This document shows, one piece after another, positions 3,835-8,699 of a DNA stretch of 64,000 nucleotides. The notes below the pieces were generated by a model, which saw only the letters and a program-made list of their open reading frames with translations, made no database searches and was not told where the DNA came from. The translations under genes and the position numbers were made by a program. Source of the DNA: a virus. Each line of letters opens with the position of its first letter. The first letter of the stretch is position 1. The stretch is taken from the IMG/VR virus record IMGVR_UViG_3300044614_001780. One strand, 5' to 3'.

Positions 3835-3871
3835 ATACTAAAAAAGAGGGGTATTGTAAACCCCTCTTTTT
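3835..3871 (-). terminator. Intrinsic terminator hairpin that also contains a sigma70-type promoter (TTTACA-N17-TATGAT)
   Basis: AAAAGAGGGGT-TTACAAT-ACCCCTCTTTTTT on minus strand. Confidence 0.65.
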
Positions 3872-3876
3872 ATAGT

Positions 3877-4010
3877 TTATTTTTAACTGGAGATAATAAC
3901 CAGGCGGGAGTTATCCCATCCGCACCACCAATTTTTTAGAGAAATTGGAAACTCAATCAGTTGTTCGATTTCTCGGCTCCACCACCTAGTTTTACTTAAC
4001 TAGGAAAAGT
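3877..4010 (-). ncRNA. wcaG/manA-class cyanophage structured RNA (three tandem H-type pseudoknots, two UGGUG motifs)
   Basis: Pairings ACUU/AAGU+CCUAGUU/AACUAGG, GAG/CUC+CCAAUUU/AAAUUGG, CUGG/CCAG+UUAUU/AAUAA; UGGUG after units 1 and 2; directly upstream of a WcaG-type epimerase. Confidence 0.7.
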
Positions 4011-4219
4011 TGAGTTAACTTTGCAAATTCTATGACTCCATAAAATACACAAAGGATTAAAACATCCCAAAGCTTAAGTTTAATTGCAAAAGGTACTGTA
4101 AATAAACCACCAATACATTTTATTAATAATCCATATTTAAAATCACCCCAAAGAAGAACAAAATATCCAACTATTAAAAGAAAATTTCCAATATACCTAA
4201 GAAGGTCTGCTTTAATCAT
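3992..4219 (-). CDS. Small hydrophobic membrane protein (75 aa, about 3 TM segments)
   Basis: ORF track; almost entirely hydrophobic. Confidence 0.6.
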   Translation of the reverse strand: MIKADLLRYIGNFLLIVGYFVLLWGDFKYGLLIKCIGGLFTVPFAIKLKLWDVLILCVFYGVIEFAKLTQLFLVK

Positions 4220-4235
4220 GTATTAACCCAAGGCA

Positions 4236-4270
4236 CTCCGACCAGTACTGTTAAAGTCCATCCGTGACTA
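4236..4270 (-). ncRNA. Probable 5' element of the manA/wcaG-class RNA
   Basis: UAGUC-ACGGAUG-GACU hairpin followed by UUAACAGUACUGGUCGGAG; CGGAUGG recurs at 3916-3922. Confidence 0.45.
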
Positions 4271-4273
4271 TTT

Positions 4274-4444
4274 TTAAGAAGCATCATTATGCTCTGTATG
4301 TATTTTAATCACTTCACAGTCAGATGGCACAATTGATACCAAACGACCCGTTTTATCTTGAATTAAAAATGATTCTCCATTTTCAACTCTATCAATATAA
4401 TTATCAAAGTTTTTTTGAAAAGATTCAATGGAGATTTTTTCCAT
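4274..4444 (-). CDS. Phd/YefM antitoxin-like small protein
   Basis: MEKISIESFQKNFDNYIDRVENGESFLI resembles the Phd N-terminal fold pattern; start revised to ATG 4444. Confidence 0.55.
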   Translation of the reverse strand: MEKISIESFQKNFDNYIDRVENGESFLIQDKTGRLVSIVPSDCEVIKIHTEHNDAS

Positions 4445-4583
4445 CAGACTTTGGGACTCGATGTATATGCATAATACCTGCAAAAGGAAGTATTGTCAAC
4501 CCACATCCGCAAAGAAAAAGAAAAAAGGGACTTTGGGCAAGTACTTCTACAATTTTAAATAAAATATTAGTGTGATGTACCAT
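4425..4583 (-). CDS. Small single-TM hypothetical protein
   Basis: SPFFLFLCGCGLTILPFAGIMHIH hydrophobic helix; start uncertain. Confidence 0.45.
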   Translation of the reverse strand: MVHHTNILFKIVEVLAQSPFFLFLCGCGLTILPFAGIMHIHRVPKSDGKNLH

Positions 4584-4686
4584 TTCCATTATAATCGTTA
4601 GAATCATAATAACCACCCCTTGTCCCAAAATAAAGTGTGGTCAATACAAAGGGAATTGCAACAAATAAGAGTGCTTTACCTAACAT
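4567..4686 (-). CDS. ndhP: NdhP-like NDH-1L small subunit (39 aa)
   Basis: Not in ORF track; MLGKALLFVAIPFVLTTLYFGTRGGYYDSNDYNGNGTSH matches the recalled NdhP pattern TM-FGTRNGFYDTDQYHGNGSAH; start overlaps the end of gnd. Confidence 0.85.
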   Translation of the reverse strand: MLGKALLFVAIPFVLTTLYFGTRGGYYDSNDYNGNGTSH

Positions 4687-5710
4687 GATGCCCACCAAAC
4701 ATATATCGCATTCCGTTCAAAACTTTGGCTGCGAAAGTACCCAGATTGCGACTATTAAATCTTTCATAAAGGGCAGTAGTAATGACAGGAGCGGGTACAC
4801 CAAGGTCCACAGCGGCAGAAACAGTCCAACGACCCTCACCACTGTCGGAAACTCCTCCAGAGAACTGTTTAAGTTGACCATCATTCCGTAGAACATCAGC
4901 GGTAAGGTCAAGTAACCAACTACCAACAACACTACCACGACGCCATAACTCAGCAACCTCAGCAACGTCAATATCATAGCAATAAGATTCTGGGTCTGCC
5001 ATAGGGGCAACCTCTGCATCTCCTTCTTTGACATACTGAGCACCTGCATTTGCATTCTTGATGATATTAAATCCTTCTGCATATGCTTGCATAATACCAT
5101 ACTCAATACCATTATGCACCATCTTTACAAAGTGTCCAGCACCTGGACCACCACAATGCAACCAACCGTATTCAGCAGAAGTTATGTCTGAGTCAAATTG
5201 AGTCCTGGGGGCAGCGTCAATTCCTGGGGAGAGGGCATTAAAAATGCTTGAACAAGTGGAGACCGCAGTATCTCCGCCACCAACCATAAGACAGTATCCA
5301 CGATCCAGACCATAAACACCACCGCTAGTGCCACAATCAATATATTGGATACCAAGTTTTGCCAAGCGTTCTGCTCTCTTCCGACTGTCCTTAAAATTGC
5401 TATTGCCATGATCAATAATAATATCTCCTTCACCACAATATCGTAGTAACTCATTAATCGTCTCCTCTACAGTTTCTGCGGGCACAACCATTTGGAAAAT
5501 TCCTGGTTGAGTTGCACCATTTTTATTTTGCTTAACTACTTTAACAAGATTTTCAATAGTAGTTGTAACTCCATCCACAAATCCCTTTTCATAAGCTTCT
5601 TGTGCTTTTTCATAATTTCTACGATAACCCCAAACTTCTATTCCTGCCTTCATCATACGACGAGACATTCCTTCACCCATTCTACCTAATCCAATTAATC
5701 CTACTTTCAT
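4676..5710 (-). CDS. gnd: 6-phosphogluconate dehydrogenase
   Basis: GLIGLGRMG, DHGNS, DCGTSGG, GHFVKMVHNGIEYG, DSGEGRW, FGGH. Confidence 0.97.
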   Translation of the reverse strand: MKVGLIGLGRMGEGMSRRMMKAGIEVWGYRRNYEKAQEAYEKGFVDGVTTTIENLVKVVKQNKNGATQPGIFQMVVPAETVEETINELLRYCGEGDIIIDHGNSNFKDSRKRAERLAKLGIQYIDCGTSGGVYGLDRGYCLMVGGGDTAVSTCSSIFNALSPGIDAAPRTQFDSDITSAEYGWLHCGGPGAGHFVKMVHNGIEYGIMQAYAEGFNIIKNANAGAQYVKEGDAEVAPMADPESYCYDIDVAEVAELWRRGSVVGSWLLDLTADVLRNDGQLKQFSGGVSDSGEGRWTVSAAVDLGVPAPVITTALYERFNSRNLGTFAAKVLNGMRYMFGGHHVR

Positions 5711-5719
5711 AATTCCCTC

Positions 5720-7057
5720 CTAAACAAGTTTGAGTGGATAATCCCACTTAGTAATCTTTTCTATTTCTTCTTGTGGACCCCAAGTACCAAAATTATAATT
5801 ATAAGGTCTTGTATTTACTGGACACTGCTCCCCAACACAAAGAAGATCATCAACAATTCTCCAAGATTCCAACACTTCTTCCGAATGAACAAAGTGTGAT
5901 TGATCTCCCATTATTGCATCATATAAAAGTTTCACATACCCATCAATTGCACCCTCTGGGTAGCTATGAGTCAAAATTGCAGTTTCAATTTTATCATCCA
6001 ATCCAGGGGATTTAATATCAATCTGAATATCAAAATGTGGGTCTGGTTGGAATCTCATTACGATTCTATCTTTTGGTTCATGCTCACCAAACAAATTAAG
6101 TGGTGGTGATTTTAATTTAATTACAACTTCCACACAAGAAACAGGAAGTTTCTTGCCAGTCATAAAATAAAAAGGAACACCTTTCCATCTCCAATTGTCT
6201 ATATACATGTCTCCAGCAACAAAAGTTGGTGTTTGCGAATCACCGTTAACTCCAGACTCATTGCGATATCCTGCATATTGACCACAAACCAATTTTGTTC
6301 CCAATCTTGCAGCAGAAAGAACTTTGACCTTCTCTCTACGAATTTCTTTTGCATCATTTTTGCAAGGTGCTTCCATTGCAATTAGAGCAAGTAATTGCAA
6401 CATATGATTCTGCAACATATCCCTGACCGCACCAGCAGTCTCATAGTATTGTGCCCTACCCTCACAACCGATAATTTCAGTTGCAAAAATTTGGACCTCC
6501 TCCACATAATCACGATTCCACAAAGGTTCTAGAAGAATGTTACTGAATCTAGTTGCCAGAATATTATTAACAGTATCTTTTCCAAGATAGTGGTCTATAC
6601 GATAGACCTGTTTTTCTCGAAGATTTGACGAAACAATTTCTTGAAGTTCTTCTGCAGAGTTAAGGTTATACCCAAAGGGCTTTTCAATAACAACCTTAGT
6701 ATTATCCTGGTCATCTACAAGACCAGACATTTTAAGATTAAGAATAGCATCAGAATATCTTTCTGGTGGAACAGAAAGAAAATAAGTATTCTCATCACCT
6801 AAGGGCAAAAGTTTAAGTGATTCTAAATCACTTAAATCACAAGAAACATAATCTAAAATTCTTACAAAATCCTCAGAATAGGATCCCAAAGTATGCAACC
6901 AACTCTGTTTGCTGTGCTTAGTCCGTGATGCACCAATTATTTTAAAATCTTCTGGTAGAAGTTTTCTTTTATAGAGTTCATAAAGTGCTGGTATCAACTT
7001 TTTTCTACAAAGATCTCCTGTTGCTCCAAAAATTACTATTGTTTTCATAGTTACCAA
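5720..7057 (-). CDS. zwf: Glucose-6-phosphate 1-dehydrogenase
   Basis: GATGDL, EKPFG, RIDHYLGK, RDMLQNH, WRWKGVPF. Confidence 0.97.
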   Translation of the reverse strand: MVTMKTIVIFGATGDLCRKKLIPALYELYKRKLLPEDFKIIGASRTKHSKQSWLHTLGSYSEDFVRILDYVSCDLSDLESLKLLPLGDENTYFLSVPPERYSDAILNLKMSGLVDDQDNTKVVIEKPFGYNLNSAEELQEIVSSNLREKQVYRIDHYLGKDTVNNILATRFSNILLEPLWNRDYVEEVQIFATEIIGCEGRAQYYETAGAVRDMLQNHMLQLLALIAMEAPCKNDAKEIRREKVKVLSAARLGTKLVCGQYAGYRNESGVNGDSQTPTFVAGDMYIDNWRWKGVPFYFMTGKKLPVSCVEVVIKLKSPPLNLFGEHEPKDRIVMRFQPDPHFDIQIDIKSPGLDDKIETAILTHSYPEGAIDGYVKLLYDAIMGDQSHFVHSEEVLESWRIVDDLLCVGEQCPVNTRPYNYNFGTWGPQEEIEKITKWDYPLKLV

Positions 7058-7224
7058 TCGTCGTTGTCTTCGTTATCCCCGTCAAGTTCCTTTAAATAAT
7101 CAATCCACCATTGTGGGTCTTTTTGAATCCTCCATTTCGGAACATCCAACCCACGTTCAAAATACCAATCAAAGATTGCTTTTTCTATAATTTCCTTAGT
7201 TTCAATAATTTTCTTCCTTTTCAT
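7051..7224 (-). CDS. Hypothetical protein (Trp-rich)
   Basis: Part of track ORF 7051..7305; likely start ATG 7224; DPQWWIDYL. Confidence 0.5.
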   Translation of the reverse strand: MKRKKIIETKEIIEKAIFDWYFERGLDVPKWRIQKDPQWWIDYLKELDGDNEDNDDW

Positions 7225-7393
7225 CAACATCTCCATATGCATTATCCACATAGGGTCCGTGTGGTCGTTTGGTATCTTCTCTGACATAATTGACCTCAGA
7301 AACACTTGTGGACAACCACAATGATATTTTCATTATTATGTAGATAATTGCCAATGGCAGAAAACATAAAGTTAAGATTAATGTATGTTTCAT
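7202..7393 (-). CDS. Small single-TM protein with acidic tail
   Basis: N-terminal hydrophobic helix; ATGA-coupled to upstream ORF. Confidence 0.6.
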   Translation of the reverse strand: MKHTLILTLCFLPLAIIYIIMKISLWLSTSVSEVNYVREDTKRPHGPYVDNAYGDVDEKEENY

Positions 7394-7479
7394 TGTGGAT
7401 ATGCGTTATTAAGTCCCCAATTTACAAATACTATTATTGTACCAAAAATTAAAATTGAAGACAGTATTAAATTATTCAT
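7390..7479 (-). CDS. NdhQ-like single-TM micro-protein (29 aa)
   Basis: Not in ORF track; MNNLILSSILIFGTIIVFVNWGLNNAYPQ aligns with the recalled NdhQ C-terminal half (ISAVLILGFIAGLIWWALHTAY); coupled on both sides (TAATG, ATGA). Confidence 0.6.
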   Translation of the reverse strand: MNNLILSSILIFGTIIVFVNWGLNNAYPQ

Positions 7480-7607
7480 TACATTCCTCCGTTTCTAATT
7501 CCTACAATATATCCAATGATAATTCCGCACATAAATGCCACAAACATGTATAACATATGAGAAGTAAATTGAATAACCTCCAACCATTCACTATTCGTCA
7601 TCATCAT
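7479..7607 (-). CDS. Small single-TM protein (about 42 aa)
   Basis: MLYMFVAFMCGIIIGYIVG helix; 3' part of track ORF 7479..7679. Confidence 0.55.
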   Translation of the reverse strand: MMMTNSEWLEVIQFTSHMLYMFVAFMCGIIIGYIVGIRNGGM

Positions 7608-7881
7608 CCTCATAGGTTGAAGGTTCCTCAAAGAGTTCGTCCATTTTTTGCTGTAGAACTCTTTTTTGTAATTTTTCAATATCTTCTTCCGTAAATTTAA
7701 CCACTAGTAATGGATCTCCTGCTTTAACGTCGTTAAGTTCTGGATGCTTTACTTTTGGACTTTTTGAATACCCATGATAGGCATTCATAATCATCCATCC
7801 CTGTGCAATCATCGTTAAGGATATTCCCATTAGAACAAACCAAGGAACTAAAAAGATTAGTTCAGAGTGATGTTGAGCCAT
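7591..7881 (-). CDS. DUF2973-like cyanobacterial membrane protein
   Basis: N-terminal TM then HPEL.D...GD.LLVVKF motif. Confidence 0.55.
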   Translation of the reverse strand: MAQHHSELIFLVPWFVLMGISLTMIAQGWMIMNAYHGYSKSPKVKHPELNDVKAGDPLLVVKFTEEDIEKLQKRVLQQKMDELFEEPSTYEDDDDE

Positions 7882-8060
7882 GGAAATACTGGCGGAATTA
7901 CTCCAATGAGTCGAAGAAGACCCTCAGCAAAAAGTGCAAGAACAACCCAACCAACGCACATTGAAATAATCGAAGCATTGCGATTGTGTTTTCGTATTGC
8001 ATCATCAATCATCTCCTGAACTTCAGAACGTGTAATAAACTCTTCTTGTTCATTCATCAT
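7857..8060 (-). CDS. Small membrane protein
   Basis: EVQEMIDDAIRKHNRNA followed by TM helix. Confidence 0.6.
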   Translation of the reverse strand: MMNEQEEFITRSEVQEMIDDAIRKHNRNASIISMCVGWVVLALFAEGLLRLIGVIPPVFPWLNITLN

Positions 8061-8206
8061 TTCTCGTCTCCAAGAAACTTTGCAAGAGGGTCTCTTCTGG
8101 TCTTTACAATTTCGACAGCTCTTTTGTAAAACATGTTGTCTGTATTTCCAGACTCTTCAAAAGTTGCCTTGATCTTCACCCAGTTATCGTAGGTGTGTTG
8201 ATCCAT
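8057..8206 (-). CDS. Hypothetical protein (49 aa)
   Basis: Not in ORF track; MDQHTYDNWVKIKATFEESGNTDNMFYKRAVEIVKTRRDPLAKFLGDEK; ATGA overlap with next ORF. Confidence 0.65.
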   Translation of the reverse strand: MDQHTYDNWVKIKATFEESGNTDNMFYKRAVEIVKTRRDPLAKFLGDEK

Positions 8207-8307
8207 AAGGATTAAAATACGTATACTAATATATTATAATTCAGACCAATAAAACGCCTACCTAATGTGTTCAATACGACACACTGATTAAGAGATTATT
8301 AAATTCT

Positions 8308-8559
8308 TTACCTAATTTCAAAATTTAATTTTTTAACCTTTCTTGTCCTTCTTGCTTCTTGGTACTGCAAATCTTCCCTGCTCAACACAGATTTTGTATC
8401 ATCTAATTTATTTAAATTAATCAACTCAACCAAAGAAAGATCGACTGCACTTATCTTATCTCCAGTAATAGAAGTCAAATTATCACAACCGCAGCATTTA
8501 GTTTGCGTAGAATTTGATTCTAATTCTGTATTACAATTTTTGCATCTTACTTTTAACAT
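8308..8559 (-). CDS. Small zinc-ribbon protein
   Basis: CKNC...CCGC; start revised to ATG 8559 because the longer track ORF overlaps the tRNA. Confidence 0.65.
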   Translation of the reverse strand: MLKVRCKNCNTELESNSTQTKCCGCDNLTSITGDKISAVDLSLVELINLNKLDDTKSVLSREDLQYQEARRTRKVKKLNFEIR

Positions 8560-8589
8560 TTTTCTAATGATTTCTACTGAGTTATAACA

Positions 8590-8660
8590 AGCGGACAACG
8601 AGGATCGAACTCGTGATTTCAACTTGGAAGGATGACGTGTTACCGCTACACCATGTCCGC
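8590..8660 (-). tRNA. tRNA-Gly(TCC)
   Basis: GCGGACA acceptor stem, TGGTGTAGCGGTAACAC D-arm, anticodon loop CTTCCAA, GTTCGATC T-loop; CCA not encoded. Confidence 0.93.
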
Positions 8661-8669
8661 ATTATTTGC

Positions 8670-8699
8670 ATTATATCTTACATAAAAATTATCTGTCAA
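8670..8699 (-). promoter_or_regulatory. sigma70-type promoter for the tRNA
   Basis: TTGACA-N18-TATAAT, 9 nt before the tRNA 5' end, directly after a GCAA-loop hairpin (8699-8724). Confidence 0.75.

Follow-up and report, generated by a model that had tools for sequence, protein, structure and literature searches.

The question raised by positions 4567 to 7479 of the IMG/VR virus record IMGVR_UViG_3300044614_001780, a 64,000-nucleotide stretch of DNA referred to here as the window, is why a phage should place two very small open reading frames (ORFs) on either side of its genes for two pentose-phosphate enzymes, glucose-6-phosphate dehydrogenase (zwf) and 6-phosphogluconate dehydrogenase (gnd). 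A reading made from the letters of the DNA, called here the sequence-only reading, had taken the two ORFs for NdhP-like and NdhQ-like micro-proteins and had proposed that, together with the enzymes, they link pentose-phosphate flux to the NDH-1L complex of the host, biasing its complex I toward NDH-1L or remodelling it with a truncated mimic. NdhP and NdhQ are single-helix subunits specific to NDH-1L, the form of cyanobacterial NDH-1 that serves respiratory and cyclic electron flow. Both ORFs are found on the minus strand where they had been placed, at 4567..4686 and 7390..7479, and both overlap their neighbours. The comparisons described below show by homology that the phage encodes host-derived copies of both NDH-1L-specific single-helix subunits, namely a full-length NdhP and a minimal NdhQ, the latter termed Q and the former P hereafter.

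The ORF for P encodes 39 residues from its ATG or 43 from an alternative TTG at 4698, and public data carry the 39-residue call. The ATG of P, at 4684-4686, lies inside the 3′ end of gnd, whose stop is at 4676-4678, so that the two genes share 11 nt. The product is a single hydrophobic helix followed by the tail FGTRGGYYDSNDYNGNGTSH, and thereby displays the helix and FGT[RK]xG[YF]YD...Y.GNG..H tail that characterize NdhP. In a phmmer search of all PDB chains, the top two matches were the NdhP chains of T. elongatus (6khi_P, E 1.5e-8; 6hum_P, E 1.7e-7), followed by noise (E above 0.1), and residues 8-43 of the peptide aligned with residues 8-44 of 6khi_P, which is nearly the whole length. The peptide belongs to phrog_2173 (E 2.8e-20), a family of unknown function, and neither Pfam nor NCBIfam holds a model matching it or the NdhQ-like peptide. 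Relatives were found in 438 GTDB genomes with a small alignment as the query, the best of them from Cyanobium and Synechococcus at 60-74% identity. By homology, then, the window P is a full-length, host-like NdhP homolog. It shares its helix and FGTRGGYYD..Y.GNG..H tail with cyanobacterial and cyanophage NdhP (6KHI_P; phrog_2173; T4-GC 248), and its tail is host-like also in that it is free of the 3-residue insertion (..GENNYY..) present in the inspected marine isolates S-CAM9, ACG-2014h, ACG-2014f and Sf-CH3.

As the sequence-only reading had stated, phage ndhP is already present in the literature (PMC10452541, PMC12801897), where it is described as uncommon in cyanophages (PMC12801897). That description is contradicted by the 386 phage records in which ndhP was found by tblastn, all of them cyanophages and often with the gene adjoining gnd or zwf; in these records ndhP is nearly always hypothetical or uncalled. 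In the Prochlorococcus phage P-TIM40, an ndhP homolog (gp027, annotated as hypothetical; L210:1504-2207) lies directly upstream of, and overlaps, an annotated ndhI, which constitutes a different NDH-1 gene pair.

The NdhQ-like product of 7390..7479, the 29-residue peptide MNNLILSSILIFGTIIVFVNWGLNNAYPQ, comprises one transmembrane helix and the C-terminal WGLNNAYPQ. The single helix with a W-[A/G]-L-x-x-A-Y ending that is typical of NdhQ reads LILSSILIFGTIIVFVNWGLNNAY here, and the ending motif is common to phage Q and every host NdhQ fetched. The NdhQ helix to which the sequence-only reading had compared the peptide corresponds exactly to residues 22-44 of the NdhQ chain 6l7o_Q. Searched alone against the PDB, the window Q has a sole match at E up to 10, and that match is NdhQ (6khi_Q, E 0.68), a suggestive result; searched alone in six frames, it has the ndhQ ORF as its single best match in five of five picocyanobacterial genomes (E 2.6e-5 to 0.12). 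Searched against the PDB, a 10-sequence phage profile, made of the window copy and ORFs from nine cyanophage isolates, picks out NdhQ chains at E 2.4e-4, 7.3e-4 and 0.05 and nothing else before E 4; searched in six frames, it finds one ORF in each of 53 among 201 Cyanobacteriota genomes. The 31 loci fetched from the latter search are all canonical NdhQ (...F.GADSP-helix-W[AG]L..AY), including that of Thermosynechococcus, which equals the PDB chain in the aligned part. The picocyanobacterial NdhQ ORF (about 38-40 residues) itself matches 6khi_Q at E 2e-7, and the exact WGLxNAYP ending of NdhQ from Synechococcus, Cyanobium and Prochlorococcus is also that of the phage copies. A phage-only profile of 40 sequences (the window and IMG/VR copies) matches 133 of the 151 genomes of the picocyanobacterial family, usually once each.

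The same relationship is recovered in the opposite direction. When the window was scanned frame by frame (1,732 stop-to-stop frames of 20 residues or more) with a hidden Markov model (HMM) of host NdhQ only, 7390..7479 was matched at E 6e-9 and the next-best frame at 0.44. Alignment of the phage and host families with hhalign gave a probability of 97.8%, E 1.2e-12 and a score of 52, compared with 20 for the best of 50 column shuffles. With profile similarity to cyanobacterial NdhQ significant both ways, homology identifies 7390..7479 as a genuine NdhQ homolog, in agreement with the earlier assignment; PHROGs holds no family for the peptide. About 10 of the 151 picocyanobacterial genomes give two NdhQ-like matches. 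One such copy (L243; G348:C1:1726083-1726160) keeps ..VIWGLLNAYP and has a different N-terminus without DSP, and may represent either a paralog or a copy that reached the host genome from a phage.

The resemblance to cellular NdhQ, which includes a helix of equal length and the W-[G/A]-L-x-x-A-Y motif (6KHI_Q, 6L7O_Q, 6HUM_Q; L090:1459-1575), ends at the N-terminus. Phage Q starts at the conserved Met that in host NdhQ comes just before the helix, and the N-terminal soluble segment of NdhQ, F-x-G-A-D-S-P or, in picocyanobacteria, ..SDSP/T, is absent from the window copy, as the sequence-only reading had noted, and from every other phage copy seen. Accordingly, Q is filed as a truncated NdhQ-core homolog and not as a complete NdhQ, with phage copies of 26-35 residues and cellular proteins of 38-50. 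Q also differs from cellular NdhQ in being encoded by a virus and in its translational coupling to phage-only ORFs, with a one-base overlap between its ATG and the stop of an upstream 66-residue ORF (TAATG) and a second overlap between its TGA and the ATG of a downstream 63-residue ORF (ATGA).

Despite its brevity, Q behaves as a gene. The phage family is under purifying selection, with a median pairwise dN/dS among 49 distinct nucleotide versions of 0.37 in frame as opposed to 0.89 and 2.3 in the alternative frames; the start and stop are likewise conserved, and 40 phage copies show no variation at the residues V..WG...AYP. The exact 29-residue product is called, unnamed, on 18 public contigs. 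Relatives were detected by tblastn in at least 75 phage records, all of cyanophages and mostly without an annotated feature, and in nine isolates the match is a complete ORF of 26-34 residues ending in ..V.WG..[NH]AY.., unannotated in all nine. A Q relative is carried by 208 IMG/VR contigs, retrieved through one narrow pattern, and among 1.84 billion protein representatives there are 40 Q clusters (50% identity) at E 0.001, almost all of 27-37 residues. Longer matches in that search (54-160 residues) were considered as fusions and set aside, as they look like mis-called starts. Given this spread of Q and the 386 records with ndhP, both of the proteins that attach the NDH-1L-specific NdhD1/NdhF1 module to the remainder of the complex are encoded by many phages.

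In the host complex, NdhP and NdhQ sandwich NdhD1 from opposite sides and contact NdhF1, interfacial lipids and carotenoids (PMC6992706, PMC7021789). When either is deleted, about half of the NDH-1L disassembles into NDH-1M, and cyclic electron transfer is impaired (PMC11794437, PMC4131877). Judged from homology, phage P and Q probably sit at the NdhP and NdhQ sites of host NdhD1/NdhF1 and preserve NDH-1L while infection proceeds. Under this proposal, both peptides would be produced early in infection and then inserted into the thylakoid membrane, where they would take the NdhP and NdhQ positions flanking host NdhD1, at the NdhD1/NdhF1 interface, and replace or supplement host subunits that would be scarce after host gene expression collapses. 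NDH-1L would thereby be kept from decay to NDH-1M, and cyclic and respiratory electron flow would go on making ATP. The phage Zwf and Gnd, for their part, would drive carbon through the pentose-phosphate pathway for NADPH, and surplus reductant would reach NDH-1L via ferredoxin-NADP reductase (FNR) and ferredoxin. Direct feeding of NDH-1L by NADPH is not supported, the electron donor of photosynthetic NDH-1 being ferredoxin and not NADPH (PMC6992706). Because ferredoxin reduces NDH-1, any link to pentose-phosphate NADPH is indirect and needs FNR and ferredoxin.

Modelling of the complex, which the sequence-only reading had suggested, was run with NdhD1. For the window Q and the NdhD1 encoded by a Synechococcus genome, the predicted complex scored 0.50 against 0.00 for the best of three controls; at least 83% of contacts were common to the runs, and the predicted local distance difference test (pLDDT) of the partner was at least 76. 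Of 80 solved complexes, 58 attain the mark applied to such predictions, as do 2 of 110 mismatched pairs; at scores of 0.60 or under, only 7 of the 80 solved complexes attain it, together with both passing mismatches. The calibration included no protein under 30 residues, and the window Q has 29. Moreover, because a homologous complex has already been solved, the pass may reflect likeness alone. The prediction thus lends weak support to docking of phage Q on NdhD1.

Whether the position of Q and P around zwf and gnd has a meaning of its own is best judged from other viruses. Q is the third gene upstream of zwf in the window, with 63- and 84-residue ORFs intervening, and the order 67aa-96aa-(66aa)-Q-[zwf]-[gnd]-P-(phd)-75aa recurs among 80 IMG/VR loci. 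In 49 of the 80, P is found 3′ of Q on the same strand, arranged as Q-gnd-P (19 loci; 9 distinct Q cores), as Q-zwf-gnd-P (5 loci; 3 cores), with other DNA between (7 loci; 4 cores) or directly adjacent (18 loci; 1 core), the P ATG in the adjacent loci being situated 4-5 nt past the Q stop. For 11 distinct Q variants there is no P within at least 3.5 kb downstream. Among isolates, Q and P are at most 0.5 kb apart in S-CAM9, ACG-2014h and ACG-2014f, and bracket gnd in Sf-CH3. In S-SCSM2R, Q is found before talC with P 4.9 kb further on; the Q ORF of this phage (PQ898602.1:182744-182848; L006), just before talC, is unannotated. S-SCSM2R was published with ndhD and ndhP (PMC12801897), and with the NdhQ-like ORF added to these, three components of the NDH-1L-specific module would be encoded in its genome.

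It is unlikely that Q, zwf, gnd and P form a dedicated module, selected jointly so that NADPH from Zwf and Gnd burns through NDH-1L. The part of the earlier proposal that stands is the bracketing, which recurs in 24 of the 80 viral loci, as Q-gnd-P or Q-zwf-gnd-P with 12 distinct Q cores, and additionally in Sf-CH3; a pattern scan also found no strong terminator between the genes. The functional part does not fare as well, as the linkage is optional. Nothing or other DNA lies between Q and P in 25 loci, and both genes also occur away from zwf and gnd, with P beside petE or ndhI without gnd and Q beside petE or talC. A close relative of the window has Q-zwf-gnd without P, and it is again ferredoxin, not NADPH, that reduces NDH-1 (PMC6992706). 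The suggested survey of co-occurrence with zwf and gnd therefore gave a divided answer, finding the bracketed order together with phages that carry P without Q or Q without P. Co-occurrence and steady linkage across phages, as an obligatory zwf-gnd-ndhP-ndhQ module would exhibit, were not seen, and the Q/P bracket, though recurrent, is an optional arrangement within a flexible island.

Some of these observations also count against a joint role of P and Q in keeping host NDH-1L intact. The linkage counts are of contigs, not independent lineages, and the 18 contigs with adjacent Q and P carry one common Q core sequence. Q was found without P in four of the nine isolates (DSL-LC03, ACG-2014i, S-RIM12 and one ACG-2014j isolate), and P was found without Q in six of six other isolates sampled (S-SSM4, S-RIM8, S-RIM2, P-TIM40, P-SSM2 and Syn33), which were searched for Q with the phage Q profile. 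The relative just mentioned, an IMG/VR contig 97.8% identical to window positions 7639-4678, diverges exactly at the gnd stop and is without ndhP. Since P and Q are not always together, or with zwf and gnd, an obligatory joint mechanism is disfavoured; and since the genes lie in a hypervariable island of auxiliary metabolic genes (AMGs) flanked by structural genes, part of the synteny may reflect island structure and not functional coupling. Finally, no phage copy has the N-terminal segment that is conserved in cellular NdhQ, and the function of Q could therefore differ. As a separate observation, the divergence in the 97.8%-identical contig (L122:2962-5247) forms an abrupt mosaic boundary where gnd and ndhP overlap in the window, beyond which ORFs of 225, 218 and 83 residues, the last glutaredoxin-like, replace ndhP.

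The missing segment invites the view that Q is a truncated mimic, a phage NdhQ core that competes with host NdhQ and changes NDH-1L rather than preserving it. Such a mimic might destabilise NDH-1L, alter its regulation or form a phage-specific version, possibly with phage NdhP and, where present, NdhD or NdhI. All of the approximately 50 distinct phage copies are devoid of the ..DSP segment, which is present in every cellular NdhQ fetched, and many have basic N-termini (MRTK.., MDKRK..) where those of the host are acidic. Further NDH-1 genes are at hand in some phages, as S-SCSM2R has ndhD in addition to ndhP (PMC12801897) and the ndhP of P-TIM40 adjoins ndhI. However, the helix and C-terminal motif of Q are strongly conserved, as would be expected if normal docking were kept, while NdhP is full length and host-like, and the N-terminal segment of Prochlorococcus NdhQ is already short and degenerate. 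Cyanophage AMGs, moreover, generally support the energy supply of the host and do not damage it. A mimic of this kind is therefore decidedly unlikely. Little probability likewise attaches to a bolder version, in which a two-peptide kit of NdhP and minimal NdhQ, joined by NdhD or NdhI in some phages, would build a hybrid virus-host NDH-1L of altered stability or regulation. Because the viral Q is without the N-terminal segment, this hybrid would differ from the host complex, and if the idea were true, the infected cell would be committed to electron flow, cyclic and respiratory, that draws on reductant from the pentose-phosphate pathway.

A third explanation is that the Q-like peptide, albeit derived from NdhQ, is a phage membrane peptide now working outside NDH-1, for example in membrane remodelling, in exclusion or as the partner of the upstream 66-residue membrane protein. 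The latter is encoded at 7479..7679 on the minus strand, is translationally coupled to the ndhQ-like gene, and is conserved directly upstream of Q in 37 of the 80 viral loci and in S-SCSM2R. This coupling to a phage-only membrane ORF, along with the several phages that have Q without P, would suit such a role, and the 66-residue product may be a partner of the Q peptide. The invariant residues V..WG...AYP are nevertheless the same as those conserved in host NdhQ, synteny with ndhP recurs, and the prediction with NdhD1 cleared its controls, if only as weak support, so that a function outside NDH-1 is highly improbable. The 66-residue ORF (in S-SCSM2R, L006:2861-2992) ends in ..MLYMFVAF.CGI.IGY.VG.RNG... 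and has no PHROG, Pfam or significant host match, the host comparison covering five picocyanobacterial genomes.

That Q is a chance ORF or the decaying fragment of a captured host gene, as its very short length, a hydrophobic composition that inflates weak similarity scores and the single-sequence E of 0.68 might suggest, is hardly credible in view of significant profile and reverse-profile statistics, frame-specific purifying selection, conserved starts and stops, and forty 50%-identity clusters among the 1.84 billion representatives.

Seen as parts that would maintain NDH-1L in the infected cell, P and Q join a well-populated class. Other cyanophage AMGs of electron transport (psbA/D, hli, petE, petF, PTOX, ndhI, ndhD and the photosystem I (PSI) cassette) are likewise host-derived thylakoid components, share the hypervariable island with Q and P, and are regarded as maintaining the energy supply of the infected cell. 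NdhQ is not among them, and the 29-residue Q falls below the usual cut-offs for gene calling and annotation. On homology, NdhQ is thus a further cyanophage AMG for a subunit of a thylakoid complex, and Q a truncated member of the NdhQ family. The sequence-only reading knew of no phage NdhQ, and no description of a viral NdhQ was found in the literature searched, from which most subscription papers are absent and in which NdhQ came up only in a reference title and within a peptide string. As cyanophage ndhQ illustrates, genes of 26-35 residues escape annotation. The pair offers a concrete, testable handle on how phages sustain cyclic electron flow and ATP in infected picocyanobacteria, and the natural N-terminal truncation of phage Q is a ready-made experiment on the part of NdhQ that is needed.

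The surrounding DNA is part of the AMG island of a T4-like cyanomyovirus (Kyanoviridae). At the nucleotide level, 3900-8100 matches Synechococcus and Prochlorococcus myoviruses exclusively, at 74-81% across zwf and gnd. From 3992 to 8622, every gene is on the minus strand and most overlap their neighbours, in the 5′ to 3′ order of 67-, 96- and 66-residue membrane ORFs, the 29-residue ORF, 63- and 84-residue ORFs, zwf and gnd, followed by the 39-residue ORF, a Phd-like gene and a 75-residue membrane ORF. Between Q and P, on the same strand, lie zwf (5720..7057), which can be aligned with the annotated zwf genes of S-SM2 and further cyanophages, and gnd (4676..5710), which directly precedes and overlaps ndhP and has annotated counterparts aligning to it in many cyanophages. 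The two ORFs between Q and zwf, also on the minus strand, are the 63-residue membrane ORF (7202..7393; phrog_2832) and the 84-residue ORF (7051..7305; phrog_2075). Upstream of the co-oriented run, pattern matching identified a candidate early promoter with the perfect sigma-70 consensus TTGACA-18-TATAAT (8670..8699, minus strand), and the run is closed by a candidate bidirectional terminator, a GC-rich hairpin of 12 bp flanked on each side by T/A runs (3841..3871). No strong terminator was found between the two by pattern scan.

The 96- and 67-residue membrane ORFs (7591-8060, minus strand) are upstream of Q in 73-75 of the 80 viral loci. The former has a faint match to DUF2973 (E 0.13), a cyanobacterial family, and neither has a significant host match as a single-sequence query. 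The neighbouring small membrane ORFs of 66, 96, 67 and 63 residues were considered as further host-derived subunits and rejected, there being no significant match in five picocyanobacterial genomes. Between ndhP and the 75-residue ORF sits a Phd/YefM-like antitoxin gene (phrog_375; 4274-4499, minus strand) with its own near-consensus sigma-70 promoter candidate (TTGACA-17-TATTAT, 4499..4471), and a gene of this type is located 3′ of ndhP in 13 viral loci as well.

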